Shown one piece after another: positions 319 to 50,243 of a stretch of 64,000 bases of DNA. This DNA comes from an uncultured Candidatus Saccharibacteria bacterium (GTDB lineage: Bacteria > Patescibacteriota > Doudnabacteria > UBA920), in assembly GCA_964483665.1 (NCBI GenBank), contig CAZACP010000001.1:6358-70357 (forward strand), given 5' to 3'. Both the position numbers and the translations under genes were made by a program. How positions within the stretch are numbered: position 1 is the stretch's first letter; the number at the start of each line of letters is the position of its first letter. The notes under the pieces are model-generated. The model was not told the origin of the DNA, made no database searches, and saw only the letters and a list, made by a program, of their open reading frames with translations.

Positions 319-469
319 AAAATGACAAAAATACAAATGCACTTGCAACTATACTTTTTTCATTTATGTCATTTTCGCCGTTTTTGTCATTAAGTCCGTT
401 AAGTAAATTGCTGTGTGGAAGAAAGGAGCAAATGTTGCAAAAGCAGCATTTTTTTTATATAATCCCTTT

Positions 470-754
470 ATGCTTACAAAAGAAGAAGTAGAGAAAATTG
501 CTGTTTTAGCCAGAATTGAACTTACCGAAAACGAGGTGGAAAAGTTTCAAAAAGACCTTTCCGCTGTTTTAGATTACGTGGAAGAGTTAAAAGAGGTGAA
601 TGTGGAAGGTTTGGAAGAGGTAAGCCAGGTAACTGGCTTAGTAAATGTCCAGAGAATGGACGTAGTGGTTGACCATGGAAATAGGGAAGAAATTTTTTCA
701 CAAGCGCCGGAAATGAAAGACGGGTATTTCAAAGTTAAAGCGATTTTGAATTAA
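470..754 (+). CDS. gatC: Asp/Glu-tRNA(Asn/Gln) amidotransferase subunit C
   Basis: MLTKEEVEKIAVLARIELTENEVEKFQKDLSAVLDYVEEL matches GatC; ~94 aa from the internal ATG at 470 (the listed ORF starts at 413); directly upstream of gatA and gatB. Confidence 0.8.
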   Translation: MLTKEEVEKIAVLARIELTENEVEKFQKDLSAVLDYVEELKEVNVEGLEEVSQVTGLVNVQRMDVVVDHGNREEIFSQAPEMKDGYFKVKAILN

Positions 755-856
755 ATAAAATTTGGAAATTAAGTAAAATTAAGTAAAATTTCAGTGCAGT
801 AATTTTTATTTAATTTTACTTAATTATGTTCAATTTTATTTAATATATTTTTAAAA
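755..856. repeat. Conserved AT-rich intergenic element, copy 1 (see 31355..31456); contains the inverted repeat aattaagtaaaatt / aattttacttaatt
   Basis: About 44 nt near-identical to the ftsE|ftsX spacer; ends immediately 5' of the gatA ATG. Confidence 0.7.
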
Positions 857-2347
857 ATGTCTGGCTTTGAATATAAAACTTTAAAAGAGTTACGTGCTTT
901 ATTAGATAGTAAGATGGTTTCGTCTGTAGAACTGACGAAATATTTTTTGTCGCGTATAAAAAATTTAGACAAAGACTTAAACAGTTTTGTTACGGTGTCC
1001 GAAGAAGAAGCTTTAAAAAATGCCAAGGAAGCAGACGAATTCATAAATTCGCCGGGTGAGAATCCTTTTTTATGCGGAATACCATATGCCAGTAAGGACT
1101 TGTTTAATACCAAAGGCATACGGACAACTGCCAGCAGTAAAATTTTAGACAATTTTTTACCGCCATTTGACGCGACGGTAACAAAAAAATTAAAAGAACA
1201 AAAATCTGTTTTATTGGGAAAGACTAATTTAGACGAATTTGCCCACGGCTCCAGCACTGAAACTTCCGCTTACGGGGCTTCTCATAACCCGTGGGATAAA
1301 AATCGAATACCGGGCGGAAGCAGCGGAGGCAGTACAGCCGCGGTAGCCGGAGGGCTTACTCCGTGGGCAACAGCCACTGAAACCGGCGGCAGTATTCGCC
1401 AGCCGGCCAGTCTTTGCGGGGTAAGCGGCTGGAAGCCGACTTACGGCCGGGTAAGCCGCTACGGCGTAATTGCTATGGGTTCTTCCCTCGACTGTCCGGG
1501 CGCAGTTGCTTACACTGTGGAAGACTTGGCTCATTTGGCAGAAATTATGTCGGGACACGACGAACAAGATTCAACTACCAGTCCTATACAAGTTCCCGCT
1601 TACCATAAAAATTTAAATAAAGATATTTCAGGTTTAACTTTAGGTGTTCCCAAGCAATATTTTGTTGACGGAATGGAAGACGGCGTGAGGGAAAAAGTTT
1701 TAGACGCTATTAAGCATTTAGAAAAACTCGGAGCTAAAATAAAAGAGGTAGATTTGCCGAATACCAAATACGGCTCTTTGGTATACGCCATAATTTGTCC
1801 TTCAGAAGTTTCTTCCAATTTAGCCCGCTTTGACGGAATACGTTATGGTCATTCTGCCAAGGATGCTAAAACTTTGCTTGAAACTTACCAAAAAAGCCGG
1901 GGCGAGGGTTTTGGCACCGAATCCAAGCGCAGGATTTTAACCGGCACTTATGTGCTTTCCGCCGGATATTTTGACGCTTACTACCGAAAGGCGCAAAAAG
2001 TCAGGAGACTTATTATAAATGAATTTAACAGCGTTTTTAAAGAAGTAGATGCTTTAATATGTCCTTCTTCGCCGAATGTAGCGGTAAAAATTGGCGGCGC
2101 AAAAGAAAATCCGCTTTTTGGCTATATTGCCGACCAGTTAAATATCCCTTCTTCGCTCGCGGGTTTACCCGCTCTTTCGGTTCCTTGCGGTTTTGCTCGT
2201 CCGAGCGATGGCGAGTCGCCAAGTATGGACGGTTTGCCGGTTGGTCTTCAAATAATCGGTCCGCAGTGGGGAGAGCAGACAATATTTAACATAGGCTACG
2301 CTTACCAGCAGGAAACGGATTGGCATAGGAAACACCCTGGGGTTTAA
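857..2347 (+). CDS. gatA: Glu-tRNA(Gln) amidotransferase subunit A (amidase family)
   Basis: Amidase signature GGSSGGSTAAVAGG and the catalytic Ser-cisSer-Lys context; 496 aa; gatCAB order. Confidence 0.95.
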   Translation: MSGFEYKTLKELRALLDSKMVSSVELTKYFLSRIKNLDKDLNSFVTVSEEEALKNAKEADEFINSPGENPFLCGIPYASKDLFNTKGIRTTASSKILDNFLPPFDATVTKKLKEQKSVLLGKTNLDEFAHGSSTETSAYGASHNPWDKNRIPGGSSGGSTAAVAGGLTPWATATETGGSIRQPASLCGVSGWKPTYGRVSRYGVIAMGSSLDCPGAVAYTVEDLAHLAEIMSGHDEQDSTTSPIQVPAYHKNLNKDISGLTLGVPKQYFVDGMEDGVREKVLDAIKHLEKLGAKIKEVDLPNTKYGSLVYAIICPSEVSSNLARFDGIRYGHSAKDAKTLLETYQKSRGEGFGTESKRRILTGTYVLSAGYFDAYYRKAQKVRRLIINEFNSVFKEVDALICPSSPNVAVKIGGAKENPLFGYIADQLNIPSSLAGLPALSVPCGFARPSDGESPSMDGLPVGLQIIGPQWGEQTIFNIGYAYQQETDWHRKHPGV

Positions 2348-8147: not shown

Positions 8148-9209
8148 ATGAAAAAATTTTTTATTTTTCTAATCCCTGCGCTTTTGTTGTCAGCGGGTTG
8201 CGACGTTTTTTCCAAAGGAGGCAGCGCGGGGCTTTCAAAAACTATAAATGGCGGAGTTGACTGGATTTTAGCCAACAAGCAGGATGGCGGCAGCGGGAGC
8301 ATGCAGGCAGCCAATATTTCCAAGTTGGAAATTGACCCAAATAATCGGGAGAATATTTACGCGGGAAGCTATAACGGCGGGTTGTTTTTGTCTACCGACA
8401 GCGGCGGAACTTGGAAAAATATATTAAGCAACAGCACGGTTTTTGATTTTGCGGTTAATATGGCAAACCCCAAAATTATTTATGCGGCAGGCGACATTGG
8501 GGGGTTGGGAAGAGTGGTTAAAACATCAGACGGCGGAAAAAGTTGGCTTAAAGCTTACAACGAGTCAACGCCCAATAATCCGGTTAGGAGCATTGCCCTA
8601 AACCCCTCAAACCCCGAACATCTGGTTATAGGAACAGACTCGGGGACGGTTATAAAAAGCACTGATGGGGGCTTAAATTGGCAGCTTTTAAAAAATTTTT
8701 CCAGCAAAATTAACAGAATATATTGGACAAACAGCGGGGTCTATGTATTAGTAAGAGAAAAGGGTTTGTTTAAAGGCAGCGGGGTAGGTGATGATTTTAC
8801 CGATTTAACTTCCGGGCTTAGAAGCGAAGGACTGCTTAACCAATTTTCTAAAACCGGTTCGGTAAAAATATTTAACCAGGCGTATGTTGACCCTTTAAGT
8901 AGCAATCTTTTGTATGTAACTACGGATATTGGCTTGTTTAAGTCAATAGATTTAGGAAAAAATTGGACAGCTGTAAAATTGCCGGTAAAACAGGAAGCTT
9001 TAAACGCCAGGCCAATAGTAGTAGCTAAGCAAAATAGTAATACAGTCTTGACCGCCATAGGTTCTATTGTGTATAAATCTACAGACGGGGGAAATAGTTT
9101 TCAAACTCAAAACGTGCCTTTTTTAAACGCTTTTGTAAACTACTTAGTTATGGATCCCGTATTGCCTCAAATAATGTATGTGGGAGGGTATGTAAACCAA
9201 AACAATTAA
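8148..9209 (+). CDS. Lipoprotein with BNR/Asp-box repeats (beta-propeller, Ycf48/sialidase-like)
   Basis: Lipobox LLLSAGC; repeated S/T-x-D-G-G-x-(T/S)-W motifs (TDSGGTWKN, TSDGGKSWL, STDGGLNWQ, STDGGNSFQ). Confidence 0.7.
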   Translation: MKKFFIFLIPALLLSAGCDVFSKGGSAGLSKTINGGVDWILANKQDGGSGSMQAANISKLEIDPNNRENIYAGSYNGGLFLSTDSGGTWKNILSNSTVFDFAVNMANPKIIYAAGDIGGLGRVVKTSDGGKSWLKAYNESTPNNPVRSIALNPSNPEHLVIGTDSGTVIKSTDGGLNWQLLKNFSSKINRIYWTNSGVYVLVREKGLFKGSGVGDDFTDLTSGLRSEGLLNQFSKTGSVKIFNQAYVDPLSSNLLYVTTDIGLFKSIDLGKNWTAVKLPVKQEALNARPIVVAKQNSNTVLTAIGSIVYKSTDGGNSFQTQNVPFLNAFVNYLVMDPVLPQIMYVGGYVNQNN

Positions 9210-9226
9210 CAATTTACGATTAACAA

Positions 9227-9790
9227 TTGACCATGATCGATCAAATTATAAACAATCATAAACCAGAATTTGAAAAAGCTATAGAACACTATTTGCACGA
9301 ACTTTCGTCGGTCCGCACAGGCAGGGCAAACCCGGCTTTGCTTAATACTGTTACAGTAGAAAGCTATGGCGCAAAAATGTCTTTAGAACAGGTAGCCTCT
9401 GTTACCGTGAGTGACGCTAAAACTTTAGTAATAAGCCCGTGGGACAAAAGCCAACTTCAGGCCATAGAAAAAGGCATTCAGCTGGCTAACTTAGGTTTTA
9501 ATCCTTCGAACGACGGTATTGTAATTCGAATTATTTTACCCGCTCTTTCTGAAGAGCGAAGAAAAGAAATGGTAAAAATGGTCGGGCAGATTGCTGAGAA
9601 AGGAAAAATTGCTATTCGAAATGTAAGGGAAAGCGTAATAAAAGAAATGAAAAAAGCGGAAAGCGACGGAAAAATTTCCAAGGACGATTTAACTCACGGG
9701 CAAAAAAAACTGCAGGAGAGCGTGGACAAATATAACGAGGAAATTAAAAAACACGCGGAAAGCAAGGAAAAAGAAGTAATGACTGTTTAA
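9227..9790 (+). CDS. frr: Ribosome recycling factor
   Basis: 187 aa; RRF length and the conserved RTGRANPALL block. Confidence 0.9.
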   Translation: MTMIDQIINNHKPEFEKAIEHYLHELSSVRTGRANPALLNTVTVESYGAKMSLEQVASVTVSDAKTLVISPWDKSQLQAIEKGIQLANLGFNPSNDGIVIRIILPALSEERRKEMVKMVGQIAEKGKIAIRNVRESVIKEMKKAESDGKISKDDLTHGQKKLQESVDKYNEEIKKHAESKEKEVMTV

Positions 9791-11379: not shown

Positions 11380-11459
11380 ACCGTAAAAGTTAATTTTAAA
11401 TTTTAAATTCTAAATTTTAATTTACCCTATTTACTCCATATATCTGCGAAACAACAATT

Positions 11460-12698: not shown

Positions 12699-12833
12699 AT
12701 CCGAAATTCGAATATCGAAATTCGAAACAATACAAAAATCTAAAATAAAAAATTCAAAAGTCAGTAAGGGTTTGGGAATTTTTAATTTAGGATTTTTTCG
12801 AATTTCGTATTTAGCATTTCGAATTTTTAATTT

Positions 12834-13886: not shown

Positions 13887-14000
13887 AAATATTGACAAAA
13901 ACGACGTAAATGACAAAAATAAAAAATAAAATACAGATTTTTGGGTGGTATTTTAAATTTTTGTCATTTTTATTATTTTTGATCATTTTTCATTTCTTCA

Positions 14001-17317: not shown

Positions 17318-17397
17318 TATTATGTACTAGGTATAATGTATAATGTGTGGGGAAGGTATTTTATATATTATACTTAATACTTTATACACAATACGCG

Positions 17398-21271: not shown

Positions 21272-21377
21272 TTTTATCCCTAATTCATACTTCGCGCTTC
21301 TCGAATTATGAATTTAGGATTTAATAATTAGAATTTGTTTCGGATTTCGATATTCGAATTTAGGATTTAATACGTTT

Positions 21378-25370: not shown

Positions 25371-25808
25371 ATGAGAACAAAAATAACCAGGTTAGACAAA
25401 ACAGTAGAGCTTCCTAAATACCACACCAGTGAGTCCGCGGCTTTTGATTTAGCCGCGAATGAAGACGCGGTTATAAAACCAGGGGAAATTGGCAAAATAA
25501 AAACCGGGTTAATAATAGAAGCGCCCAAGGGACATTTTTTGCTTATAGCCGCCCGCAGCAGTTTGGGACTAAAAAAAGGTCTTAAGCTAGTTAACGGAAT
25601 AGGCGTGGTAGACAGAGACTACGCCGGACCCACAGACGAAATTCATATTTTAGTTCATAACTTTACCGCACTGCCGGTAGAAATTAAAAAAGGCGACAGG
25701 CTAGCCCAAGGCATGTTTGTAAAGGTTGATCAAATTGAATGGGAAGAAGTAGATAATATTCGCGAGCAGAGCAGGGGAGGGTACGGAAGCACGGGAGGTT
25801 ACAAATAA
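25371..25808 (+). CDS. dut: dUTP diphosphatase
   Basis: dUTPase motifs (SAAFDL, GLIIEAP, GVVDRDYAG, RGGYGSTG); the upstream part of the listed ORF is ttcgta word repeat. Confidence 0.85.
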   Translation: MRTKITRLDKTVELPKYHTSESAAFDLAANEDAVIKPGEIGKIKTGLIIEAPKGHFLLIAARSSLGLKKGLKLVNGIGVVDRDYAGPTDEIHILVHNFTALPVEIKKGDRLAQGMFVKVDQIEWEEVDNIREQSRGGYGSTGGYK

Positions 25809-25822
25809 ATTTTAAATTTCAA

Positions 25823-26371
25823 ATGTCAAATTTTAAATTAATTATAGGGCTTGTTGGGGAAAAATTAGCCGGAAAAGACACTGTGGCTAACTATTTGGTT
25901 AAATCCAAAGGCGCTTTTCATATTCGTTTTACCCATATTTTAGACGAAATACTAACCTCGCTAGACCTTCCTTTGTCGCGCAGGAATGAAATAGACTTAG
26001 GGCTTGGTTTGAGAAAAGTTTTTGGCGACGGGGTTTTGGGCAAGGCCGTGGTGAAAAGAGCGCTTTCTGCCAACGAAGATTTTATAGTTATAAACGGCAT
26101 ACGAATGGATGAAATGAAGAATGTAAAAGAAATTGGCGCGAAAGTTATTTATGTTACCGCCCCGGTAAATTTAAGGTTTGAGCGTTACAAGCAGCGCCAT
26201 GAAAAAGCAGACGACGGTGTTATGAACCTAGAGCAGTTTGTGCAGCAGGAAAAAGAATTAACCGAAATAGGCATTCCCGAATTAGGCAAACAGGCGGATT
26301 TTAAAATTGAAAATACCGGCAGCGTGGAAGAATTATATAAACAAGTTGAAGAAATATTAGCCAAATTCTAA
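25823..26371 (+). CDS. P-loop nucleotide kinase; the P-loop resembles phage-type dNMP kinases
   Basis: GLVGEKLAGKDTVANYL compares to the T4 dNMP kinase GVKRSGKDTTADF; it sits in a dTTP-pathway cluster. Confidence 0.5.
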   Translation: MSNFKLIIGLVGEKLAGKDTVANYLVKSKGAFHIRFTHILDEILTSLDLPLSRRNEIDLGLGLRKVFGDGVLGKAVVKRALSANEDFIVINGIRMDEMKNVKEIGAKVIYVTAPVNLRFERYKQRHEKADDGVMNLEQFVQQEKELTEIGIPELGKQADFKIENTGSVEELYKQVEEILAKF

Positions 26372-26374
26372 AGT

Positions 26375-27112
26375 ATGGCCATTTTGAGGTTTGGAAAAAC
26401 AAAAAAGAAAGAAGAACCGCAGCGCGGGCGTTTTATAGTTATAGACGGGACTGACGGCAGCGGCAAGGCAACTCAGACTAAAATGCTCATAGAAACTTTG
26501 CGCTTGGAAAATTATCCGGTGGAAATGGTGGACTTTCCCCAATACGGCACCAAGTCCGCAGGCATAATTGAAGAATATTTAAACGGCAAATACGGGCAAG
26601 TGAGTCCTCAGGCAGCCAGTATTTTTTACGCTATAGACAGGTTTGACGCCAGTTACAAAATTCGGGAGTGGCTTTTGCAAGGCAAGATTGTTATTGCTAA
26701 CCGTTATGTAACGGCCAATGCCGGACATCAGGGCGGAAAAATTGAAAGCGACTTTCAACGCCTAAAATTTTTTAAGTGGCTAAATAATTTAGAGTACGAG
26801 GTGTTTAATATCCCAAGGCCGGATTTAAACATAATTCTTCATGTGCCGGCGGAAATAGCTCAAACTTTGGTAGATAAAAAGTCCGTTAGCGACCGGGCTT
26901 ATGTGAACGGAAAAAAGCGCGACTTGCACGAGTCGGATATTGAGCATTTAAAAAACGCGGAAAAAGTCTATTTGGAAATAGCCAAGCTGTTTCCAAATAC
27001 AAAATTAATAGAGTGCGTGGAAGCCGGCAGGCTGCTTGAGCCGAACACTGTACACAACAAAGTTTGGCAACTGGTAAGACGCATAGGTTTAAAAGATTTT
27101 AAAGTAAAGTAG
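26375..27112 (+). CDS. tmk: Thymidylate kinase
   Basis: FIVIDGTDGSGKATQ P-loop; DRY-like motif; 245 aa. Confidence 0.9.
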   Translation: MAILRFGKTKKKEEPQRGRFIVIDGTDGSGKATQTKMLIETLRLENYPVEMVDFPQYGTKSAGIIEEYLNGKYGQVSPQAASIFYAIDRFDASYKIREWLLQGKIVIANRYVTANAGHQGGKIESDFQRLKFFKWLNNLEYEVFNIPRPDLNIILHVPAEIAQTLVDKKSVSDRAYVNGKKRDLHESDIEHLKNAEKVYLEIAKLFPNTKLIECVEAGRLLEPNTVHNKVWQLVRRIGLKDFKVK

Positions 27113-27119
27113 TTTATCT

Positions 27120-27160
27120 CACAGATACGCAGATACTTCAGAGCGCACAGATAAAACACC
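27120..27160. repeat. Left cacagata-type repeat block bracketing the GxxExxY ORF
   Basis: tctcacagatacgcagatac...cacagataaaac; its reverse complement (gtatctgagtatctgtg) lies at 27545..27585. Confidence 0.7.
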
Positions 27161-27169
27161 AGGAATTTT

Positions 27170-27544
27170 ATGGAAGATTTTTTATACAAAGATTTAACAG
27201 AAAAATTAATAAAAGCAATTTTTAATGTTTATAATGAATTAGGATATGGTTATCGGGAAAAAGAATATCAAAATGCTTACGCGGAGGAATTAAAAGATTT
27301 AGGGCTGCTTTTTTCAAGAGAGTTATATTCAAATCTAACATATAAGGGTAAAGTAATTAGAAGATATTTTTTGGACTTTTTGGTTGAAAATAAAGTAGTT
27401 GTTGAGCTTAAAGTTGCAAATGAAGTTTATCACCAGCATTTTACTCAAGTTTTACAGTATTTGAAAAATAATAATTTGCAATTAGGTCTAATTTTAGTTT
27501 TAACCCCAACGAAGGTTCTTATTAAGAGAGTAATAAATCAGTAA
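27170..27544 (+). CDS. GxxExxY family protein (PD-(D/E)XK-like, TIGR04256)
   Basis: ELGYGYREKEYQNA...LDFLVENKVVVELK matches the GxxExxY signature; inserted between tmk and thyA. Confidence 0.75.
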   Translation: MEDFLYKDLTEKLIKAIFNVYNELGYGYREKEYQNAYAEELKDLGLLFSRELYSNLTYKGKVIRRYFLDFLVENKVVVELKVANEVYHQHFTQVLQYLKNNNLQLGLILVLTPTKVLIKRVINQ

Positions 27545-27585
27545 ATCGCGTAATCCGCGTTATCTGAGTATCTGTGAAAGAAACA
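27545..27585. repeat. Right inverted copy of the cacagata words
   Basis: cgcgtaatccgcgttatctgagtatctgtg. Confidence 0.7.
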
Positions 27586-27592
27586 TAAATAT

Positions 27593-28405
27593 ATGCAAGC
27601 ATATTTAGATTTATTAAAAAAAATAAAAGATGAAGGCGTAGAAAAGCATGACCGCACGGGCACCGGAACTAAAAGCATATTTGGCTACCAAATGCGTTTT
27701 GATTTAAGCAAAGGTTTTCCTTTACTAACTACCAAAAAGGTTCATTTAAAGTCCGTAATTTACGAGCTGCTTTGGTTTTTAAAAGGCGATACCAACGTAA
27801 AATGGCTTAATGAGCATGGAGTTACTATTTGGGATGAATGGGCTGACGAAAACGGGGACTTAGGACCCGTTTACGGCAAGCAGTGGCGAGCTTGGAGGGG
27901 TTATAACGGAGAAACTTTTGACCAGATTGCTTATGTTGTAGACCAAATTAAAAATAATCCCGACAATCGCCGTATGATTGTTAGCGGGTGGAACGTGGCA
28001 GATTTGCAATCGCTCATAGCCGGTAAAAAAACCGCGCCTCCGCCGTGCCATACTTTGTTTCAATTTTACGTGGCTAACAACAAGCTTTCTTGCCAGCTGT
28101 ATCAACGCTCAGCCGATGTGTTTTTGGGCGTGCCGTTTAATATAGCGTCTTACAGCCTTTTAACAATGATGATGGCGCAGGTAACAGACAAAGATTTAGG
28201 AGAATTTGTCCATACTTTTGGCGACGCGCATATTTATAACAATCATATGGAGCAGGTGAATTTGCAACTTAGCCGCACTCCCAAAGCCTTGCCGACCATG
28301 AAGTTAAATCCGGAAGTTAAAAGCATTTTTGATTTTAAATATGAAGATTTTACTTTGGAAAATTACAATCCCGATCCGGGCATAAAAGCGCCAATAGCTA
28401 TTTAG
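27593..28405 (+). CDS. thyA: Thymidylate synthase (ThyA type)
   Basis: Active-site PPCH plus [10 protein letters not shown] and the classic ThyA blocks. Confidence 0.95.
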
Positions 28406-28476
28406 TAAGTAGTTAGTAGTAGGTAGTAAGTAGCAAGCAAAGTTAAGAATATTGAAGTATTAACAAATTAATTAAC

Positions 28477-30676: not shown

Positions 30677-31354
30677 ATGATTAAATTCCAAAAAGTAACA
30701 AAAAATTATAAAAATTCCAAAGCTTTGGACGGCGTGGATTTAGACATACATCACGGAGAGTTTATTTCTTTGGTGGGCAGGAGCGGAGCTGGGAAATCTA
30801 CTTTGTTAAAACTAATAATTGGCGAGGAAGAAATAGACGGCGGGAGGATTTTAATTGACGACATTGACATCTCCCAAGTTCGAAAGTCTGACCTGCCTTT
30901 CTTAAGAAGAAAGATTGGCGTGGTGTTTCAGGACATGAGGCTTTTGCCCAGGCGGACGGCTTTTGAAAATATTGCTTTTGCAATGGAAGTCTGTGGGCAC
31001 CGGTATGAAAATATTGTTAAGGAAGTTCCCAAAATTTTAGAGCTGGTCGGCCTTCACCATAAGCGCAATAATTTTCCGGACGAAATGTCGGGCGGCGAAA
31101 AGCAGCGCGTGGCTATTGCGCGCGCGCTTTCACACCGGCCTGTGCTGCTTTTGGCCGATGAGCCGACGGGAAATTTAGACGAAGTTAACGCGGCAGAGGT
31201 TTTAGATTTGCTTTTAAAAATCAACAACCTTGGGACAACTGTAATTTTAGCGACCCACGCGGCGGATTTGGTAAACAAAATTAAAAAGCGCGTAATAACC
31301 ATAGAAAACGGAAAAATTACCATTGAGCAGGAGAAGGGAAAATATAAGTTATAA
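30677..31354 (+). CDS. ftsE: Cell-division ABC ATPase FtsE
   Basis: Walker A GRSGAGKST, signature LSGGEKQR, Walker B LLLADEPT. Confidence 0.95.
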   Translation: MIKFQKVTKNYKNSKALDGVDLDIHHGEFISLVGRSGAGKSTLLKLIIGEEEIDGGRILIDDIDISQVRKSDLPFLRRKIGVVFQDMRLLPRRTAFENIAFAMEVCGHRYENIVKEVPKILELVGLHHKRNNFPDEMSGGEKQRVAIARALSHRPVLLLADEPTGNLDEVNAAEVLDLLLKINNLGTTVILATHAADLVNKIKKRVITIENGKITIEQEKGKYKL

Positions 31355-31456
31355 TTAATTAAAAATAAATAAAATTAAGTAAAATTGATCATAATTTATG
31401 TGCAGAAATTTTTATTTAATTTTATTTAATTATGGTCAATCTTATTTAATTTCATA
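31355..31456. repeat. Conserved AT-rich intergenic element, copy 2 (matches 755..856)
   Basis: aaattaagtaaaatt...gtgcagaaatttttatttaattttatttaattatggtcaatcttatttaat. Confidence 0.7.
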
Positions 31457-32374
31457 ATGTTCGATTCCATTTCATTTTTTAGAATAGTTAAGACAGGTTT
31501 CGTCAATTTTTGGCGCAATTTGTCTTTGTCCGCGGCTGCAACCATGGTTATGAGCATAACTTTGGTAATTTTTGCTTCGCTGTTTTTAATTTTTGGCGTT
31601 ACTCAGTATAGTTTAAAAACTATTAAGAATACCGTAGACATAAGTGTGTATTTTAAGTCAGGTCTTGGTGAGGACAAAATAAACAGCATAAAAAGCGAAC
31701 TGGAAACTAATACTAAAATTCAAACAGTCCGCTATACTTCGGCCGCGGAAGCATTTAAGCAATTTAAAGAAAAGCACAATAATGATCCTTTAATTCAGCA
31801 ATCTTTAAACGAGCTGACAGAAAACCCGCTGCCTGCGACTTTAAATGTTAAGGCCTATAATTTAGAAGACTATCCGGAAATAGCAAACCAGCTGTCAGAT
31901 ACAAAATTCAAAGATTTTATAGACAAAATAAATTATGAAGATAACCGGGTCGTAATTGAGCGGTTAAACAAAATTTTAAAATTCGTTATTACTTTTGGTT
32001 TAGGTTTGATTGCGGTTTTTTCACTTATAGCTGTTTTAGTCATTTTTAACACAATTACGCTTACTATTTATAACCGCAAAGAAGAAGTGGAAATTATGCG
32101 GCTGGTGGGGGCGACTAACTGGTATATTCGCGGCCCTTTTTTGGTTGAGAGTTTTTTGTACGGTATTTTTGCCAGCATAATAACCGCAAGCTTGCTTTCC
32201 CCGGTATTTACCAAGTTTTTACCCAAAATTGCTTTTTACGTAAACCCGCAAATTTCGGTGTTTAACCAAAACATATTTAATTTTTGGTTTTTAATGCTTA
32301 TTTTATTGGCTTTAGGCTTGATTTTGTCGGTTGTTTCCACTCTGCTTGCTATAAGGCGGTATTTAAAAATATAG
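31457..32374 (+). CDS. ftsX: Cell-division permease-like FtsX
   Basis: Four-TM FtsX topology with a large extracellular loop; adjacent to ftsE. Confidence 0.85.
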   Translation: MFDSISFFRIVKTGFVNFWRNLSLSAAATMVMSITLVIFASLFLIFGVTQYSLKTIKNTVDISVYFKSGLGEDKINSIKSELETNTKIQTVRYTSAAEAFKQFKEKHNNDPLIQQSLNELTENPLPATLNVKAYNLEDYPEIANQLSDTKFKDFIDKINYEDNRVVIERLNKILKFVITFGLGLIAVFSLIAVLVIFNTITLTIYNRKEEVEIMRLVGATNWYIRGPFLVESFLYGIFASIITASLLSPVFTKFLPKIAFYVNPQISVFNQNIFNFWFLMLILLALGLILSVVSTLLAIRRYLKI

Positions 32375-32685
32375 CTACAGAACTACAGGTCTGTATATTA
32401 CAGAAAACAACAGAAGTTGATAAATATCGGTTTCTAAAATTCTGTAGTTTTCCGTAGATTCGTATATTTGGTAACTTTTGCAGGATTTTTATCCACAAAT
32501 TTGCATTTTTTTTCTACATAAGTATAATAAGAAAGAGCCCTAAAATAGCAGTAAGCATAAAGGGCTAAATGGCTCTCGCGAAAGCGGGATTTTTTTATTA
32601 AGAAAACTGATGGCACGGATCGAGAAACGGATGGACACAGAAGTCCGTGTCCCTCTGTAATTGTCAGTGTAATCGGTTTTATTTT

Positions 32686-33135: not shown

Positions 33136-33587
33136 AGCCTTCTCCCGGCGGGGAGAAGGTGCCCGAAGGGCGGATGAGGGTGTTATATGCGCAACATAAA
33201 CAAAAGCTTTGTTAATCTTTCTAGGAATTTAAGAAAAAACGAAACACCTTGGGAAATAAAGTTATGGCAAAGGTTAAGGGGAAGGAAATTTTTAGGATTT
33301 AAATTTAAAAAACAATTGGTTATAGGTAATTATATTTACGACTTTGGCTGCTTTGAAAAGAGACTATTAATTGAACTAGATGGCGGACAATATAGTGAAA
33401 ATGATATTAAAGATAAAGATCAAATTAAGGAAGATTTTGCAAAAAACCAGGGCTATAAAATTATCAGGTTTTGGAATAATGAACTAGACAACAATTTTGA
33501 AGGAGTTTTGGAGACAATTAGAAAAAACTTATTATAACCCTCATCCGGCCGTTGGCCACCTTCTCCCCTAAAGGGAGAAGGCAAACT
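33136..33587. mobile_element. Composite miniature element: DUF559 ORF bracketed by inverted copies of the ccctcatccg/ccttctccc hairpin MITE
   Basis: Left copy 33136..33183 (reverse orientation), right copy 33537..33587; the arms are conserved and the small hairpins differ but remain stems. Confidence 0.7.
33187..33537 (+). CDS. DUF559 (Vsr-like endonuclease-fold) domain protein
   Basis: WEIKLWQRLRGRKFLGFKFKKQ...IELDGGQY matches the DUF559 pattern. Confidence 0.7.
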   Translation: MRNINKSFVNLSRNLRKNETPWEIKLWQRLRGRKFLGFKFKKQLVIGNYIYDFGCFEKRLLIELDGGQYSENDIKDKDQIKEDFAKNQGYKIIRFWNNELDNNFEGVLETIRKNLL

Positions 33588-38712: not shown

Positions 38713-38808
38713 ATGTTTTTACTTCGTAAAAAAACAATTAATGATTAACTAAATAACAATTAACTGCGAGTGCAGTCCTGTTAATCGTGAATTGTAAATT
38801 GTTAATTG

Positions 38809-40167
38809 TTATATTTTTTTAAATATTACTATTTCCCTGGCAACTATTTGGTCTTTACGGTCGTAAATAGCTGTTCCTCTGGCTGTGAGCTTTAAAAATT
38901 TGTATTTTTTAGCCTCAGAGGAGGGGATTAAGCTTATAGAATTATATCCTAAAGCCGAGGCAAAGTCAAGACTAGGCAGCATTTCGTACTCGTGCCTGCC
39001 TTTTTTATAAGCCGGTATGCACATAACTATTTTTGCGCCGGAGGGTAAAAATTTGGTGAATTCTTGAAAGGTTTTAGAATAAAGTTCTGTTAAATCGGCG
39101 AAATTTTTCTTAATTTCGTGCTCTTTTGGATAGTTGCCGTATATTGGCCCTAAAGTGCATTCCGTCACTATGCTACTTATTTTTTCTTTGCCAATAAGCT
39201 CTGCAACTTTTGTGGCGTCGGAGGTATTTAAAATATATTTTCCCGGGGCGATTTTATAGCGGTTTCTAAACCATTCCAAATTTTGTTCACTGCCTCTTAC
39301 AGCCACCCTGTTAATGTCTGACCCGAACATTCTGTAGCCCAAAAGCAGACCTTCCTGAATAATAGTGCCGATTCCGCAGAAAGGGTCAAGTATGGTGCTG
39401 CCTGGCTTGCAGCCGCTTAAATTTAGCATGACTTGCGCGACTTTTGGCGGGATCATGCCTTGCTTGTCGTCGCGTACCGGGCGCTGGTAGTCTCTTCGCC
39501 CGTAGTCTTCAAAGTCCTGGACTGTCAAAGTTTTGCCCACATAAACTTTTTCTTTGCCGGCTATAAGGCAAACCTCGGCTCCTTTTTGTAAAAGCAAATT
39601 GCCGGTAACGGCCACAGAGGCCAAAGAAAGGGAATTTATTTCGGGTAATACCAGTCTCACGCTGGCTCCGGTTTCGGTTAGGGTTTTCTTTATCATCATG
39701 CCAATTTTCTTGGGTTCGATGAATATATTGTTAGTTCGCTGGCCGGCAGAATTGTTTTGATTTTGGTTATAGCCGCCATTTTGAAAAGCGGGACGTTTTG
39801 CCAATTCTTCGTCGAGCAAATAAATACTGACTCCAAACTGAATTTTGCCTTTGTAATCTTTTAGAAATTGTTTTTTTAGCACGCTAGGCTTGAAGTAGTG
39901 CTGTAGAGTAAAGTTAACCGAATCAAACTCTCTTTTTTTAAGTTCCTCGCAAATTTGAATTATTTTTATGCAGCCGCCCAAAAACTTTTGCAGCTTTTCC
40001 ACTTGCAAAGGTTTTTGGGTTTCTATAATTAAAACTTCAAATGAAGCGTCTACTATTGAAACGGGGTTGTCTAAAAGCCCCAAAGACGCATCTGCCCTTT
40101 CTAAAACAGCCAAAATTTCGGCCATTGAAAGAGTATAAACCCTCCCTAATATGAATCCGTAGCGCAT
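38809..40167 (-). CDS. THUMP-domain RNA methyltransferase (Trm11/RlmL-like N2-guanine MTase family)
   Basis: SAM motif I DPFCGIGTI; UPF0020-like; trimmed to MRYGFILG because the upstream 80 codons overlap a divergent gene. Confidence 0.65.
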   Translation of the reverse strand: MRYGFILGRVYTLSMAEILAVLERADASLGLLDNPVSIVDASFEVLIIETQKPLQVEKLQKFLGGCIKIIQICEELKKREFDSVNFTLQHYFKPSVLKKQFLKDYKGKIQFGVSIYLLDEELAKRPAFQNGGYNQNQNNSAGQRTNNIFIEPKKIGMMIKKTLTETGASVRLVLPEINSLSLASVAVTGNLLLQKGAEVCLIAGKEKVYVGKTLTVQDFEDYGRRDYQRPVRDDKQGMIPPKVAQVMLNLSGCKPGSTILDPFCGIGTIIQEGLLLGYRMFGSDINRVAVRGSEQNLEWFRNRYKIAPGKYILNTSDATKVAELIGKEKISSIVTECTLGPIYGNYPKEHEIKKNFADLTELYSKTFQEFTKFLPSGAKIVMCIPAYKKGRHEYEMLPSLDFASALGYNSISLIPSSEAKKYKFLKLTARGTAIYDRKDQIVAREIVIFKKI

Positions 40168-41050: not shown

Positions 41051-41079
41051 GAAAAGATTTTAGCTATAATCCCTGTAAT

Positions 41080-42285
41080 ATGCAAAAAGAAATTTATTTA
41101 GACTACGCGGCCACAACCCCGCTTGATACAAAAGTTAAAGCCTCAATGCTGCCATATTTAGGCAGCGCTTTTGGCAACCCTTCCGCTTTGTATAAAAAGG
41201 GGAGAGAGGCAAAACAAGCAGTCGAAAGTTCTAGAAAAAGTATTGCCGGTTTAATAGGCAGCAGGCCGGAGGAAATAATTTTTACCGCCGGAGGAACGGA
41301 AAGTAACAACCTAGCTATTTTTGGCATTTTAAGAGCGGCTTTGGGGCAGAGTAAAAAAAAGTTTCCGCACATAATTACCACCAGCATTGAACATGCTTCT
41401 GTTTTAGAGCCTATAAAGTCGCTTCAAGGGGAAGGTTTTTTGGCGAGTTTGGTAAAGGTAGATTCGGAAGGAATTGTCAGTCCTGAAAATATAAAAAAAC
41501 AAATTCGGCCGGAAACGGTTTTAGTTTCGGTTATGTATGCTAACAACGAAATAGGTTCTATTCAGCCCATAGCCGAAATAGGGAAGCTTATAAGACAAGA
41601 AAACCAAAAACGGGCGGCCAAAAAATTACCTGTAATATATTTTCATACAGACGCCTGCCAAGCAGCCGGTCTGTTGGATATTAACGTACAAAAGCTGGGT
41701 GTGGATTTAATGACCATTAACGGGAGTAAAATATATGGTCCGAAACAGTCAGGCTTTTTATTTGTAAGGAACGGACTGAATATAAAGCCTTTAATGTATG
41801 GCGGGGGGCAGGAAAAGGCTTTGCGCAGCGGAACAGAAAATGTGGCTAATATTGTTGGTTTTTCTACAGCTCTCAAATTGGCTCAAGAAAATAAATTAAA
41901 AGAAAGTAAAAGGCTTGTAGCCCTGCGCGATTATTTTTTTGAAAAACTTAACAAAAATATTTCCGAAATTAGTTTAAACGGACCTGGTCTTAAGTCAGCA
42001 AAACGTTTGGCCAATAATCTTAATATAAGTGTTATGGGCGTTGAAGGCGAAGCCTTACTTCTATATTTAGACGCCCAAGGGGTGTATGTGAGTACCGGCA
42101 GTTCATGTGATTCAAGCTCAGGGCAAGAATCGCACGTTTTAAGGGCAATAGGCTTAAATGCCAAAATGTCCGAATCGGCCATTAGAATTACTTTAGGCAA
42201 AATTACAAATAAAAAAGATATAGATTACGCGTTGCAAGTTCTGGTAAGGGCAGTGAGTCTGTTAAGAAAATCCAAAACCACATAA
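41080..42285 (+). CDS. iscS: Cysteine desulfurase (class V aminotransferase, IscS/NifS-like)
   Basis: PLP-lysine context (SKIYGPKQSG...) and the SSGQESHV cysteine-loop region. Confidence 0.85.
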   Translation: MQKEIYLDYAATTPLDTKVKASMLPYLGSAFGNPSALYKKGREAKQAVESSRKSIAGLIGSRPEEIIFTAGGTESNNLAIFGILRAALGQSKKKFPHIITTSIEHASVLEPIKSLQGEGFLASLVKVDSEGIVSPENIKKQIRPETVLVSVMYANNEIGSIQPIAEIGKLIRQENQKRAAKKLPVIYFHTDACQAAGLLDINVQKLGVDLMTINGSKIYGPKQSGFLFVRNGLNIKPLMYGGGQEKALRSGTENVANIVGFSTALKLAQENKLKESKRLVALRDYFFEKLNKNISEISLNGPGLKSAKRLANNLNISVMGVEGEALLLYLDAQGVYVSTGSSCDSSSGQESHVLRAIGLNAKMSESAIRITLGKITNKKDIDYALQVLVRAVSLLRKSKTT

Positions 42286-43573: not shown

Positions 43574-44542
43574 TTATGTTCTATTATTGTTTAGCCAATT
43601 AGCTACTGCTTCAACGCCTGCAGCCCAATTCGGACAAAAGCTACGTCTTTGTCCGCTGTCTGTATTTCCATAATTTCCCGGATTGCAAGTATCTACCGCC
43701 ACACCATCAACCCCGTAATGACTGTCGACTTCCATAATTGCCATTAGCACCCTAATGTCGATATTTCTTGCCGCGTTAACAACCATATCACCAGTAAGTG
43801 GGCTTCTTATATTTCCGCCTTTAAAAATTTGAGCTGACCTGTCCATATATGACTTTACTTTTTCAGGGGTGCTTAAATCTTGTCTAAGTAAATTATTATA
43901 TCTGTCCTTAACTAGGTTTTCATGATTAGCATCGGTCGCATAACGGCGAATGTTGTAGCCGGCTAAAATAAATGGAGTACCGTTATTTCCGTTTGCTCCC
44001 GGCAAGCTTGAGCCTGGCACAAAACCAGGAATATAAGCAGGCTGCAGCGTCACACTCGGCGGCTGTATAGGCCTAAACTTAATCAGGTCTGGGTTTAAAG
44101 CTTTAAGTAGAATATAGCCGGCAAACAAAATAACTAAAGAAGTAACTGTGCTGGCTAATATGCTTTTAGCTTTGTCTACAGATTCCTGGTTGCCACCGGC
44201 TCCAATATACAAATATCCGGCAATCACTATAAAAAATACGCCGACTACAGCAGCTGTCACTATGGCAAACCTATACAGCCTGTTTATGCAGTTATATAAA
44301 TCACCGCTGGAAACGTTATTAGCGCCCGATGAATCCAAATGGCCTCCAAAAGCATTTGTAGCAAGATTAGTTTGGCTTTTCTCCGGATCCGAAGGAGCGC
44401 ATAAATATTGTTTTATTTGAGCTCCAACTCCGGCTGTAGTGTAATCTGCGCTGCCGGAAGTGGTGTTTTGGGCAAAGGCAAGGTTTAAAAAACCTATTGC
44501 CAAATAAAAACAAATCGAAATAAGTAAGAGTTTTTTAGGCAT
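43574..44542 (-). CDS. Fusion protein: TrbC/VirB2-like pilin-type N-terminal module (signal peptide, Cys pair, two TM helices) plus a lysozyme/lytic-transglycosylase-like C-terminal domain
   Basis: N-terminal 150 aa nearly identical to the paralog at 44574..45548; C-terminus LMAIMEVDSHYG...CNPGNYG resembles the SLT E-S...NP catalytic region. Confidence 0.6.
   Translation of the reverse strand: MPKKLLLISICFYLAIGFLNLAFAQNTTSGSADYTTAGVGAQIKQYLCAPSDPEKSQTNLATNAFGGHLDSSGANNVSSGDLYNCINRLYRFAIVTAAVVGVFFIVIAGYLYIGAGGNQESVDKAKSILASTVTSLVILFAGYILLKALNPDLIKFRPIQPPSVTLQPAYIPGFVPGSSLPGANGNNGTPFILAGYNIRRYATDANHENLVKDRYNNLLRQDLSTPEKVKSYMDRSAQIFKGGNIRSPLTGDMVVNAARNIDIRVLMAIMEVDSHYGVDGVAVDTCNPGNYGNTDSGQRRSFCPNWAAGVEAVANWLNNNRT
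44052..44310. repeat. Direct repeat, copy B (identical to 45070..45328); a second block 44385..44486 matches 45390..45491
   Basis: 259 bp identical by eye; encodes the shared TM-hairpin module. Confidence 0.85.
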
Positions 44543-44573: not shown

Positions 44574-45548
44574 TTATGGGCACTTGCCTTTTAAATCTAT
44601 GTGCAAATGAAAACTTTGGTCTCTGTCTCTGCCCGGGTTTATGCGATCCTCGGTAATACCAGCCTGTTTTGCTGCGTTATAAATAGCTTCACCAACCGGA
44701 CGGCCTTTGTGAGCTTTAATGTCATAAAAACCGCTTCCCAGCCTGTCGCTAAAGTCTACGGCGCAGCCAAGTTGGTGCTGAGAGCCTTTTGATTCTCTCC
44801 TTACAGTTGAACTAACCTGAGGCTTGCTTCCGCTTTGCGAAGCCACGGAACAAATTTGCAAAAGTTTTTGCCACATAGGCGCGGCCAAATTAGGCAGCTC
44901 GTTGCGCGGCCTGTCTTCGCTGGTTATAGTACAGCCCGCGGCTTCTAATTGCGCAATGCTTCCGCCGGCTGAACCGGTTATAGGGGTTGTAACCTGGGCT
45001 GAAGCTGGGATTTGGGCTGCCGGAGGTTCTCCGGTTTCTGCTTCCGGCGGCTCTGCCGTATCTAAAACTACACTCGGCGGCTGTATAGGCCTAAACTTAA
45101 TCAGGTCTGGGTTTAAAGCTTTAAGTAGAATATAGCCGGCAAACAAAATAACTAAAGAAGTAACTGTGCTGGCTAATATGCTTTTAGCTTTGTCTACAGA
45201 TTCCTGGTTGCCACCGGCTCCAATATACAAATATCCGGCAATCACTATAAAAAATACGCCGACTACAGCAGCTGTCACTATGGCAAACCTATACAGCCTG
45301 TTTATGCAGTTATATAAATCACCGCTGGCTTTGTTGTTATTAGCTGAATACTCGACCTGGCTGCCGGTAAAATTTGTTTGTTTTGGGTCGGGATCCGAAG
45401 GAGCACATAAATATTGTTTTATTTGAGCTCCAACTCCGGCTGTGGTGTAATCTGCGCTGCCGGAAGTAGTGTTTTGGGCAAAGGCAAGGTTAACCCAAGC
45501 CGTAAGGGTGTAAAAGAATATTGTTACAACAAGAATCTTTTTAAGCAT
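44574..45548 (-). CDS. Fusion protein: the same pilin-type N-terminal module plus a peptidase M15A (YcbK/MepK-like, LAS zinc peptidase) C-terminal domain
   Basis: SQHQLGCAVDFS ... DQSFHLHID matches the HxxGxAxD / HxH zinc-binding motifs of M15 peptidases. Confidence 0.65.
   Translation of the reverse strand: MLKKILVVTIFFYTLTAWVNLAFAQNTTSGSADYTTAGVGAQIKQYLCAPSDPDPKQTNFTGSQVEYSANNNKASGDLYNCINRLYRFAIVTAAVVGVFFIVIAGYLYIGAGGNQESVDKAKSILASTVTSLVILFAGYILLKALNPDLIKFRPIQPPSVVLDTAEPPEAETGEPPAAQIPASAQVTTPITGSAGGSIAQLEAAGCTITSEDRPRNELPNLAAPMWQKLLQICSVASQSGSKPQVSSTVRRESKGSQHQLGCAVDFSDRLGSGFYDIKAHKGRPVGEAIYNAAKQAGITEDRINPGRDRDQSFHLHIDLKGKCP
45070..45328. repeat. Direct repeat, copy A
   Basis: See 44052..44310. 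Confidence 0.85.
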
Positions 45549-48493: not shown

Positions 48494-48536
48494 AAAGTAA
48501 ATGACAAAAATTAAATAATTGACAAAAATGACAAAA

Positions 48537-48890
48537 TTATTCCCAAACTAAAGTTAATATTAGACCAATAAATCCTAAAATTAAACCGGCTATTGCGCCT
48601 TTAGTTGGGAGTTGGTGGGAAACGTAATAAGTCATTAGTGGTTCGGCAACCAAAATTGAGGTTATGGAAATTACTGTTACTATCCAAATATTTTTAAATG
48701 CTCTTAATCCAAACATATAGCCGCACAAAAGCATAAAGGTGCTAACTAAAGCAAAAAGCACGACTTTCCCGATTACCGGCCAAAAAGGTTTTTGTTCTGT
48801 ATAAAATAAACGAGCTGAAAGAACCTCAGCGTAAATTATAAGAGCTTCGCCAACAAACAGTACCAGACTGGAAATAATTTTTTGATACAT
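48537..48890 (-). CDS. Small 4-TM membrane protein (SMR/ArnE-ArnF-like fold?)
   Basis: 117 aa with four hydrophobic segments; next to the TagA-like glycosyltransferase. Confidence 0.4.
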   Translation of the reverse strand: MYQKIISSLVLFVGEALIIYAEVLSARLFYTEQKPFWPVIGKVVLFALVSTFMLLCGYMFGLRAFKNIWIVTVISITSILVAEPLMTYYVSHQLPTKGAIAGLILGFIGLILTLVWE

Positions 48891-48899
48891 ATTTTGCCA

Positions 48900-50243
48900 T
48901 TATATTATAGCTTTTTCGAGCATTTCTTTCAAATCATTTTGTACAATTTTGGCCAAAGTTTCTCTTTCGGGATGTACTTGTGAATTGAGTTCTTGGATAC
49001 TCGCCCATTTAAAACCTATAAACTCTTTTTGATCCATTTGAATTTCAGTGTCTGAACCTAAAAATTTTAAATAAACTATGGTTTGTTTTTGCCCGCAGTT
49101 TTTATGGTTTCTGTTTTTAAACAGTTTGCGAAGCGCGTTGTTCCAATAATAGATGTTTGTTTTGTCGGAAATTTTAATTAGGTCTAAATTTTTTATACCT
49201 GTTTCTTCAAAAGCTTCCCGCTTGGCCGCGGCAGTTGTCTCCTCTCCTTTGTCTATACCGCCTTGTGGCAACTGCCAGTAGTTTTTTTGTTTAAGTCTTT
49301 CTTCGGAATTAATCAGATCTATATAAAAATCTTTGGGGCTTCTTTCGCCGATTAAAACTTTATTTTCTTTATTTAAAATTACCACAGCCACGTTTTGCCT
49401 AAGCGGGTAGCTGTTAAAAATTTTATACCTCATTAGCATGGCTATAAGCCCAAAAGTCGCGTTAAAAATGCGCCTTAGCCTATATGGCTGGGTTATTAGC
49501 CTAAATAGCCATTCTAAACCCATTTTACGCACAAATTTGGGCGGATTTAGGCGCTTTTTGGCAATATAGTCAAAAGTACCGCCCAGGCCAATTGCCAATT
49601 TTACGGGCAAATTTTTAAGGTTGGCCTGTATCCAGGCCTCCTGTTTAATTGGCCCGTAGGCTACAAATAATATGTCAGGTGAAGCTTTTTTTATGTCTTC
49701 GTATATGGTAGGATCTTCCGGATTCTTACCCGAGAAACCGGCAATACGGAGGCCGGGATATTTTGTTATTAAAATATTCGAAACTAGTTTTGGAGTATTT
49801 CCAAAACCGCCTAAAAGGTAAATTGAAAAATTATTTTCTTCAGCCATTTTGGCAATATCCCAAATCAGCTCTGAACCCGGAATGGTTTCAAAATCCCTTT
49901 TTTTAAATAAAAGTTTTAATAGAGTTAGCTTTATTTGCCAAAGGCTTTGTAAAATTTTTCCCAAATACGATTTTGCGGTAAGCGGCAAATTTAAAAATTT
50001 ATGCGCCCAAAAAATTCCTATGCCGTCTGGCACGGCAATATCCGCCTGGTTTAGCATTGTCATAACCCTAGGGTCCTTTAGGGCCGCATACAAAAATTCC
50101 GAGTAAACAGTGGTTACCCAGGTTTGTTGATTTAAAGCTATACGATTTTTTAACTTATCGATAAGTTCTGATTTGGGCAGAGTATCGATTTTAAGTCCCG
50201 CAACGTCTATTTTATGCATAAGAAAATTATACCTATTTACCAT
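48900..50243 (-). CDS. WecB/TagA/CpsF-family glycosyltransferase fused to a C-terminal Nudix hydrolase domain
   Basis: N-terminal TagA-like fold; C-terminal Nudix box GGIDKGEETTAAAKREAFEETGI. Confidence 0.7.
   Translation of the reverse strand: MVNRYNFLMHKIDVAGLKIDTLPKSELIDKLKNRIALNQQTWVTTVYSEFLYAALKDPRVMTMLNQADIAVPDGIGIFWAHKFLNLPLTAKSYLGKILQSLWQIKLTLLKLLFKKRDFETIPGSELIWDIAKMAEENNFSIYLLGGFGNTPKLVSNILITKYPGLRIAGFSGKNPEDPTIYEDIKKASPDILFVAYGPIKQEAWIQANLKNLPVKLAIGLGGTFDYIAKKRLNPPKFVRKMGLEWLFRLITQPYRLRRIFNATFGLIAMLMRYKIFNSYPLRQNVAVVILNKENKVLIGERSPKDFYIDLINSEERLKQKNYWQLPQGGIDKGEETTAAAKREAFEETGIKNLDLIKISDKTNIYYWNNALRKLFKNRNHKNCGQKQTIVYLKFLGSDTEIQMDQKEFIGFKWASIQELNSQVHPERETLAKIVQNDLKEMLEKAII

Follow-up and report, generated by a model that had tools for sequence, protein, structure and literature searches.

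Genes and Repeated Spacers at Two Operon Junctions

An AT-rich palindromic element fills two unlinked operon junctions, gatC|gatA and ftsE|ftsX, in a 64,000-nt stretch of DNA (the window) from an uncultured Candidatus Saccharibacteria bacterium placed by GTDB in the Doudnabacteria (assembly GCA_964483665.1, contig CAZACP010000001.1, positions 6,358 to 70,357). Coordinates are positions in the window, on the + strand unless stated. Both gaps are exactly 102 nt long, at 755-856 (gatC|gatA, copy 1) and 31355-31456 (ftsE|ftsX, copy 2). The first lies between gatC (470..754; Pfam GatC; likely start at ATG 470 within an open reading frame (ORF) at 413-754; 94 aa in contig L002) and gatA (857..2347; Pfam Amidase, 1.8e-139, full length from residue 25), and the second between ftsE (30677..31354; ABC_tran) and ftsX (31457..32374; FtsX_ECD and FtsX). 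A preliminary description of this DNA had named the genes downstream of the shared sequence gatA and ftsX, and the Amidase and FtsX assignments agree with it; Pfam also confirms GatB.

The AT-rich sequence said to precede both genes is indeed there. Aligned without gaps, 766-844 and 31372-31450 (79 nt) show 87% identity (repeat family D2), and a gapped alignment extends a weaker likeness across both entire 102-nt gaps. The Smith-Waterman local score between the copies was 54.5, compared with 12.1 ± 1.9 for shuffled sequences (z ∼23), making this pair the top spacer-to-spacer match within the window. A 51-nt core, GTGCAGWAATTTTTATTTAATTTTAYTTAATTATGKTCAATYTTATTTAAT, at 794-844 and 31400-31450, has four variable positions, and the 44-nt part previously quoted with three mismatches does vary at three. 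Allowing up to 3 mismatches, the core had no other match in the window and 0 matches in 100 dinucleotide shuffles. Identical blocks common to both copies include 18 nt uninterrupted and 24 of 25 nt across GTGCAG-N-AATTTTTATTTAATTTTA. Between the shared block and the start codon there remain 12 nt at gatA and 6 nt at ftsX. The G+C content of each ∼100-nt element is 12%, and the two are the most AT-rich of their spacer class.

Two origins of this similarity were considered and rejected. Independent convergence was set aside on the strength of the identical blocks and the alignment z-score of ∼23. An assembly artefact was also rejected because both copies recur unchanged in the independent ENA, JGI and Logan assemblies. 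In addition, six independent Logan contigs (L005, L006, L009, L010, L034 and L035) start exactly at 31411, inside copy 2 and 46 nt upstream of the ftsX ATG, at a point where no 31-mer repeats within the window. This common start points to a variant that co-occurs, or to another copy that differs upstream of 31411.

Palindrome Anatomy and Predicted Folding

Each copy is a quasi-palindrome in which two ∼45-nt arms of 10-nt units (AATTAAGTAA / TTAYTTAATT) flank a 9-nt GTGCAG-containing loop, and each reaches from the stop codon upstream to within 6-12 nt of the ATG downstream. Copy 1 (749..844, delimited by inverted repeats, period-10 arrays from Tandem Repeats Finder, and RNA and DNA folds) has a 5' arm at 749-791 made of units AATTAAATAAAATT followed by AATTAAGTAAAATT twice, a loop at 792-800 (CAGTGCAGT), and a 3' arm at 801-844 with four TTTTATTTAA-type units. 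The gatC stop codon (752-754) falls within the first unit, and a copy-specific A/T tail (845..856), which has no Shine-Dalgarno (SD) motif and is unpaired in the predicted fold, leads from the palindrome to the gatA ATG. Copy 2 (31353..31451, delimited by inverted repeats and RNA and DNA folds) has arms, identified as inverted repeats, at 31353-31397 (5') and 31407-31451 (3') around a loop at 31398-31406 (ATGTGCAGA); the ftsE stop codon (31352-31354) adjoins its first unit. Tandem Repeats Finder reported 10-nt units, with AAATTAAGTA occurring 2.5 times and then TTTTATTTAA ∼4 times in the opposite sense. The 14-mer AATTAAGTAAAATT (≤2 mismatches) is found six times per element, three forward and three reverse, in 10-nt phase. 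The symmetry centre is common to both copies at the GTGCAG loop, where 9 nt separate the arms.

The inverted repeats of copy 1 pair 767-791 with 801-825 (25 nt, 92%) and 750-762 with 832-844 (13 nt, 100%), while those of copy 2 pair 31353-31397 with 31407-31451 (45 nt, 71%) and 31369-31396 with 31428-31455 (28 nt, 86%). The internal inverted repeat that had been attributed to both copies is perfect in copy 1 (AATTAAGTAAAATT / AATTTTACTTAATT, 767-780 and 777-790 with 812-825), but in copy 2 it reaches only 13 of 14 positions with one G·T pair (31373-31386 with 31418-31431). As + strand RNA, copy 1 is predicted to fold at -21.6 kcal/mol (z -3.4) and copy 2 at -20.1 kcal/mol (z -3.3), with the ATG unpaired in both. 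As DNA, copy 1 folds with a z of -5.5 and copy 2 with only -1.7; copy 2 is weaker as DNA than as RNA, since its arms need G·U pairing. The predicted duplex is at least 25 bp long, and the stems hold 0-2 G·C pairs. Across all spacers, a comparison of sense with antisense folding revealed no consistent bias.

Search for Further Copies

This genome was searched over ∼81 kb, comprising the window, ∼8 kb to its left (L024) and 8.4 kb to its right (L039). With an nhmmer profile built from both copies, neither this sequence nor ∼90 kb of relatives yielded a third one. Pattern scans of genome, metagenome and viral contig collections, which did not contain the source genome, returned only chance matches in coding sequence, several of them copies of one gene on Saccharibacteria-type contigs. 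Furthermore, no gene for an IS200/IS605-like REP-associated tyrosine transposase (RAYT; REP, repetitive extragenic palindromic) was found in the annotated part of the window, and neither copy carries a GTAG or CGTC tag.

The Same Junctions in Related Genomes

Homologues of FtsX and GatA place the organism in Candidatus Doudnabacteria, among the Patescibacteria of the candidate phyla radiation. In a strain with 99% GatA identity, the element at gatC|gatA is identical, though this strain diverges in adjoining coding sequence and in the gatA|gatB insert. Beyond this strain the junctions look different. At gatC|gatA, L030 (89% GatA identity) has a spacer of at least 102 nt with a different palindromic array of GATTGACAAGAT-type units, L033 (85%) has a perfect (GGTATTA)x4 followed by a partial inverse, and L031 and L032 (84%) have a 25-nt gap, with AAGAATYA x3 units in L031. 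At ftsE|ftsX, L019 (80% FtsX identity) has a 70-nt palindrome of unrelated 7-nt units that again spans from stop to start, L020 (76%) a 50-nt gap, L022 (76%) a 17-nt gap, and L023 (74%) 84 nt with a different inverted repeat. Seven orthologous spacers (74-89% protein identity) had no significant similarity to the element, with the exception of a stretch in L030 that agrees with copy 2 at 21 of 23 nt (TTATTTAATTcTTGGTCAATCTT; p = 0.006 before any correction for the 28 tests).

The ftsX|rplI spacer next door served as a positive control and was alignable across five Doudnabacteria genomes (window 32489-32597; L019 1395-1487; L020 1231-1331; L022 10925-11075; L023 10990-11110). Its conserved unit consists, in order, of a DnaA-box-like TTATCCACA, TTTGCA-17-TATAAT, a short segment presumably transcribed from AAGAAAGAGCC, and a terminator (TCTCGCGAAAGCGGGA followed by T7). 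No Rfam family matched this unit, which could be either a small RNA or the leader of rplI. Because the relatives' junctions lack the element while this neighboring control remains alignable, the element is neither conserved nor required. What recurs at gatC|gatA and ftsE|ftsX is an architecture and not a sequence. The word “conserved” used in the preliminary description therefore holds between the two loci and among near-identical strains, but not across related genomes.

Transcription and Translation Signals

A promoter-like site, TTGCAA-17-TATAAT (435..463; 10 of 12 matches), lies 6 nt upstream of the gatC ATG at 470 and is likely to be the promoter of the gatC-[element]-gatA unit. Upstream of ftsE, an extended -10 (TGATATAAT) can be read in the sequence. 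Within the element, a consensus scan found no sigma-70-type + strand site, with -35 and -10 hexamers 16-18 nt apart, common to both copies; the sole + strand match was TTGGAA-16-TAAAAT at 762-789, in copy 1 only. Hexamers resembling a -10 box lie near both starts, as TATATT-N7-ATG at gatA (844-849) and TTTAAT-N6-ATG at ftsX; the former overlaps the last base of the palindrome and has no counterpart in copy 2. Other promoter-like sites in the window have a canonical (aGC)TATAAT, a box that the shared core lacks. A terminator scan called no intrinsic terminator in either gap; a T5 run follows the stem in copy 1, and no U run follows it in copy 2.

SD-like motifs precede 9 of 79 ORFs, so their absence before gatA and ftsX is typical for this genome. 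Rfam 15 gave no match in the window at gathering thresholds and none at E ≤ 1 on either gap. No ORF of at least 20 aa is shared by the gaps, which contain only antisense ones running into the downstream genes. A coding function was also set aside for a 19-codon ORF of copy 2, whose stop overlaps the ftsX ATG (TAATG), as the corresponding frame closes after 2 codons in copy 1. Elsewhere in the window, TATAAT occurs 6-9 nt before starts at 458-472, 17331-17349, 41059-41082 and 50881-50901, and on the - strand at 43574-43600 (ATG at 44542) and 48890-48915. These TATAAT-N6-9-ATG arrangements suggest that the genome may use leaderless mRNAs.

Tandem-Unit Palindromic Spacers across the Window

Many intergenic gaps, as delimited on a greedy ORF map, consist of tandem units 7-10 nt long, often with the reverse complement of an array coming after the array itself. 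Examples are the spacers at 319-412, 2346-2378, 9201-9228, 11392-11421, 12699-12833, 13887-14000, 25806-25839, 28403-28437, 32375-32470, 38733-38811, 48494-48536, 55718-55883 and 56577-56775. Recurring unit families are CACAGATA, CTACAGAA, TGACAAAAA, AACAATT, AAATTCG, AATTTTA and TAGTAAG. Spacers make up 10.8% of bases and hold 26 of the 39 tandem arrays. The gatA/ftsX element is the longest shared example of this spacer class. Other modules are common to spacers at unlinked loci as well, with 24-51 aligned nt (most 26-44) at ∼75-96% identity; 12699-12730 matches 21335-21377 (reverse), and 32439-32466 matches 57237-57264 (reverse) and 53685-53727. One shared module contains CTGTAGATTCGTATAA(T/C), which resembles a -10 box. 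Repeated sequence is also present in coding DNA, where two adjacent paralogues on the - strand (43574-44542 and 44574-45548; 322 and 324 aa) have stretches of 300 nt and 123 nt in common, at 93% and 91% identity (families D1 and D5).

The distribution of these arrays is not uniform. They were found in 0 of 9 convergent spacers versus 17 of 44 others (Fisher p = 0.044), and convergent spacers hold G+C-rich short-loop hairpins instead. Immediately upstream of starts, the excess of T-rich arrays on the sense strand (11 versus 4) was not significant. In every one of 14 AT-rich palindrome spacers folded from the window and the relatives, no more than 17 nt separate the stop codon from the main hairpin, and in 12 that hairpin ends 0-20 nt short of the start codon. 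Of 20 AT-rich spacer palindromes, 7 have TGCA in the loop, frequently in the form GTGCAG or CAGTGC, with 8 loop sites seen versus 1.06 expected (Poisson P ∼1.5e-5 in a post hoc test). Such loop sites are located in the window at 792-800, 31398-31406, 38760-38775 and 340-350, and in relatives at L023 9955-9965 and 11675-11690, L031 2425-2435, L030 45-55, and L019 413-422. Avoidance of convergent spacers, the stop-to-start span and the loop TGCA together suggest some constraint or directed process and not pure drift.

Origin and Possible Role of the Element

The element appears to be a fast-evolving palindromic spacer and not a conserved regulatory site. Since each copy is much closer to its counterpart than to its orthologous spacers, the two are probably paralogues that arose by recent copying within the genome, which could have proceeded by ectopic gene conversion or by an insertion like that of MITEs (miniature inverted-repeat transposable elements). 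The preliminary description had considered a one-off duplication the better explanation should there be neither additional copies nor conservation at the orthologous junctions. Within the sequence searched, both were absent, which indicates a single duplication, of a kind of spacer module common in this genome. A small mobile or copied insertion, one of several readings proposed there, is the best fit insofar as the copies are closer to each other than to orthologues; however, only two copies were found, with no visible target duplication and no clean empty site.

We therefore favor, with a probability of about 0.5, a recently duplicated REP/MITE/Correia-like palindromic spacer that is probably transcribed within the gatCAB and ftsEX mRNAs as an A·U hairpin juxtaposing stop and start codons. 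The element would be carried inside these operon mRNAs, since the gaps have neither promoter nor terminator and promoter-like sites lie upstream of gatC and ftsE, from which co-transcription is inferred. In the RNA, it would fold into a long A·U hairpin whose stem base sets the upstream stop codon beside the downstream start codon, and the outermost pairs of the stem would be opened by the terminating ribosome. A 4-17-nt unpaired A/U tail and the ATG would stay accessible, in a genome that rarely uses SD motifs. As terminating ribosomes would remain near the next start, genes encoding subunits of one complex might accommodate such an insertion between them. A duplex of at least 25 bp would also be a plausible substrate for RNase III. 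On this mechanism a role in translational coupling or processing, likewise raised in the preliminary description, is possible. The element would be dispensable for expression of the gatCAB and ftsEX operons.

Several observations weigh against this interpretation. The - strand folds too, which would allow a role at the DNA level, and the preferred pairing register differs between copies 1 and 2. The two-sequence consensus stem has 16 pairs and 0 compensatory changes, although two sequences cannot give covariation, and mismatches between the arms (3 G·U versus 2 A·C) are uninformative. The count of two copies rests on ∼81 kb of genome. No direct repeat marking a target-site duplication lies beside either copy, where the flanks are AT-rich and the ends ill-defined with two copies; no clean empty site was found, as relatives carry other sequence (17-102 nt or more) at both junctions; and no transposase turned up among the Pfam-annotated genes of the window.

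A shared promoter or operator for gatA and ftsX, also put forward in the preliminary description, in which the phased A/T units might act as an UP element or as curved DNA, would be in keeping with very AT-rich sequence with 10-bp phasing, with the avoidance of convergent spacers by tandem arrays, and with the -10-like hexamers at leaderless distance from both starts, given that TATAAT-N6-9-ATG elsewhere in the window hints at leaderless mRNAs. We nevertheless regard it as improbable. No + strand consensus site occurs in both copies, the match in copy 1 stands alone, the candidate -10 of that copy lies outside the shared block, and the core lacks the canonical (aGC)TATAAT of the window's other promoter-like sites; moreover, orthologous junctions do without the element while the promoter next door at ftsX|rplI is conserved, and gaps of 17-25 nt suffice in relatives. 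The same absence at orthologous junctions bears on a DNA-level alternative, equally doubtful in our estimation, namely an array of six or seven 14-bp AATTAAGTAAAATT-like sites at 10-bp spacing (3 forward and 3-4 reverse) bound by a dimeric or nucleoid-associated protein, or else a cruciform. The 14-mer (≤2 mismatches) does occur 20 times in the window versus 6.7 expected, 12 of them in the elements and in phase, but no site clusters were found elsewhere in the window or in relatives, and orthologous junctions use entirely different units, so that no conserved pairing of protein and site is implied. The folding of both strands and the strong DNA fold of copy 1 (z -5.5) speak for this alternative, the poor DNA fold of copy 2 (z -1.7) against it.

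An intrinsic terminator or attenuator cutting read-through into gatA and ftsX is very improbable. In its favor, the long hairpin (-20 to -22 kcal/mol) is U-rich in the 3' arm and, in copy 1, has a following T5 run; but the scan called neither copy, no U run lies 3' of the copy 2 stem, the window's other terminator-like hairpins are G+C-rich with short loops and T runs, and polarity has no obvious rationale when each gene pair encodes subunits of one complex. Least probable of all is a relay mini-ORF of 5 codons in the 3' arm that would hand ribosomes on to the start codon downstream. Both copies contain it, as ATG TTC AAT TTT ATT TAA (MFNFI*) at 826-843 and ATG GTC AAT CTT ATT TAA (MVNLI*) at 31432-31449, differing only by F>V and F>L, and a related TTG GTC AAT CTT... 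ORF (L030 71-100) ends 3 nt before the gatA ATG. However, just two or three sequences are involved, both substitutions are non-synonymous, its ATG sits in the predicted stem, and short ATG...TAA frames are expected by chance in 88% A+T. Lastly, the element could be a functionless by-product, in which slippage builds the units, template switching at quasi-palindromes mirrors them, and one ectopic conversion copies the spacer, leaving a hairpin with no effect on expression. Rapid unit turnover at the same junctions (L033, L031, L019 and L030), relatives that dispense with the element and the many distinct unit families within one genome all agree with this possibility, which we nonetheless hold to be unlikely: arrays are absent from the 9 convergent spacers (p = 0.044), hairpins start within 17 nt of the stop and mostly (12/14) end within 20 nt of the start, and TGCA is enriched in loops.

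Comparison with Known Systems

In behavior, the systems nearest to the element are RNase III hairpins, Correia elements and REP/REPIN elements. The hairpins that RNase III recognizes between cistrons of the phage T7 early region, and the intervening sequences (IVSs) of rRNA, are long near-continuous duplexes that separate functional parts of a single transcript, as the element is predicted to do. Among close strains IVSs occur sporadically, and their loop may carry a PF05635 ORF. Like these, the PF05635 gene of the window is enclosed by similar AT-rich inverted arrays. Unlike IVSs and T7 sites, the element lies in mRNA gaps and not in rRNA helices, and it has no similarity to a known IVS or T7 site.

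Correia elements of Neisseria (Correia repeat enclosed elements, CREE, or Neisseria miniature insertion sequences, NEMIS) share with the element their non-coding nature, a length of ∼100-150 bp and long inverted repeats. They often lie between co-transcribed genes and are transcribed as hairpins, as the element probably is too. RNase III is reported to bind or cleave CREE/NEMIS, and neighboring genes can be affected (PMC2649163). CREE occur in hundreds of copies, with a 26-bp terminal repeat, a TA target duplication, a site for integration host factor (IHF) and promoter-forming ends, whereas the element was found in two copies and has arms of 10-nt units, no visible target duplication and no recognized promoter or IHF consensus. 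The MITE/Correia-type feature that it does have is the inverted repeat, with arms of 25-45 nt and 71-92% complementarity in both copies.

REP sequences and the composites known as bacterial interspersed mosaic elements (BIMEs) and REPINs (REP doublets forming hairpins) of proteobacteria are likewise extragenic palindromes, often in operons right after a stop codon. REP palindromes have been proposed to act as mRNA hairpins in mRNA stabilization and transcription termination (PMC3733652; see also PMC3116915). REPs are 20-40 nt long, G+C-rich, high-copy, tagged by GTAG/CGTC and mobilized by RAYT; the element, by contrast, is ∼100 nt long with 12% G+C and 45-nt arms, low-copy and untagged. Membership in either the MITE/Correia or the REP families is not established. 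The quasi-palindromes and tandem repeats in AT-rich spacers of organelles or Mycoplasma (for example PMC5179023) offer a further likeness, being intergenic, close to gene starts, quick to turn over and of uncertain function. The element differs from them in filling the gap from stop to start, and in being one ∼100-nt module at two unlinked operon junctions.

Small Genes Enclosed by Inverted Repeats

Three small genes in the window each lie within inverted repeats of 24-32 nt (88-91% complementarity) between housekeeping genes. They are a PF05635 23S-rRNA-IVS protein gene at gatA|gatB (2387-2752; enclosing region 2346-2777), a PDDEXK_3 gene at tmk|thyA (27170-27544; 27112-27584) and a DUF559 gene after rplI (33187-33537; 33150-33568), of families that we take to be linked to rRNA intervening sequences or homing. 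A palindrome without cargo, at 11392-11421, corresponds to the arms that flank the PF05635 gene. The strain with 99% GatA identity (L024-L027) has at gatA|gatB a different 140-aa ORF with no Pfam family (e.g. L026 1645-2170), and the flanking spacer is different there too, whereas at gatC|gatA the element is the same as in the window.

These observations raise the rather speculative idea, which we consider improbable at present, that a family of IVS-like hairpin cassettes has settled in intercistronic gaps of Doudnabacteria and perhaps of other members of the candidate phyla radiation (CPR), and that the element is such a cassette without cargo. Such cassettes may have A/U-rich tandem-unit stems, often with a TGCA/GTGCAG loop, may preserve coupling through their stop-to-start span and may be excised by RNase III; the stems enclosing the PF05635, PDDEXK_3 and DUF559 genes may be stems of the same cassettes. 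A literature search on intergenic repeats of CPR bacteria or Doudnabacteria, and on PF05635, PDDEXK_3 and DUF559 genes flanked by inverted repeats, found nothing specific.

For the two loci, the result is mainly corrective, in that the shared sequence does not appear to be a conserved control element of two essential operons. The wider pattern is one of junctions in a CPR lineage filled by fast-evolving stop-to-start palindromes, which sometimes enclose small selfish genes, and such palindromic gaps would explain assembly breaks at these positions in these genomes. If the hairpins are transcribed, they would bear on operon co-expression in streamlined, SD-poor CPR genomes that tolerate insertions. 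Were the cassette idea true, it would describe a previously unreported way for mobile hairpins and their cargo to spread in essential operons while leaving these unbroken.

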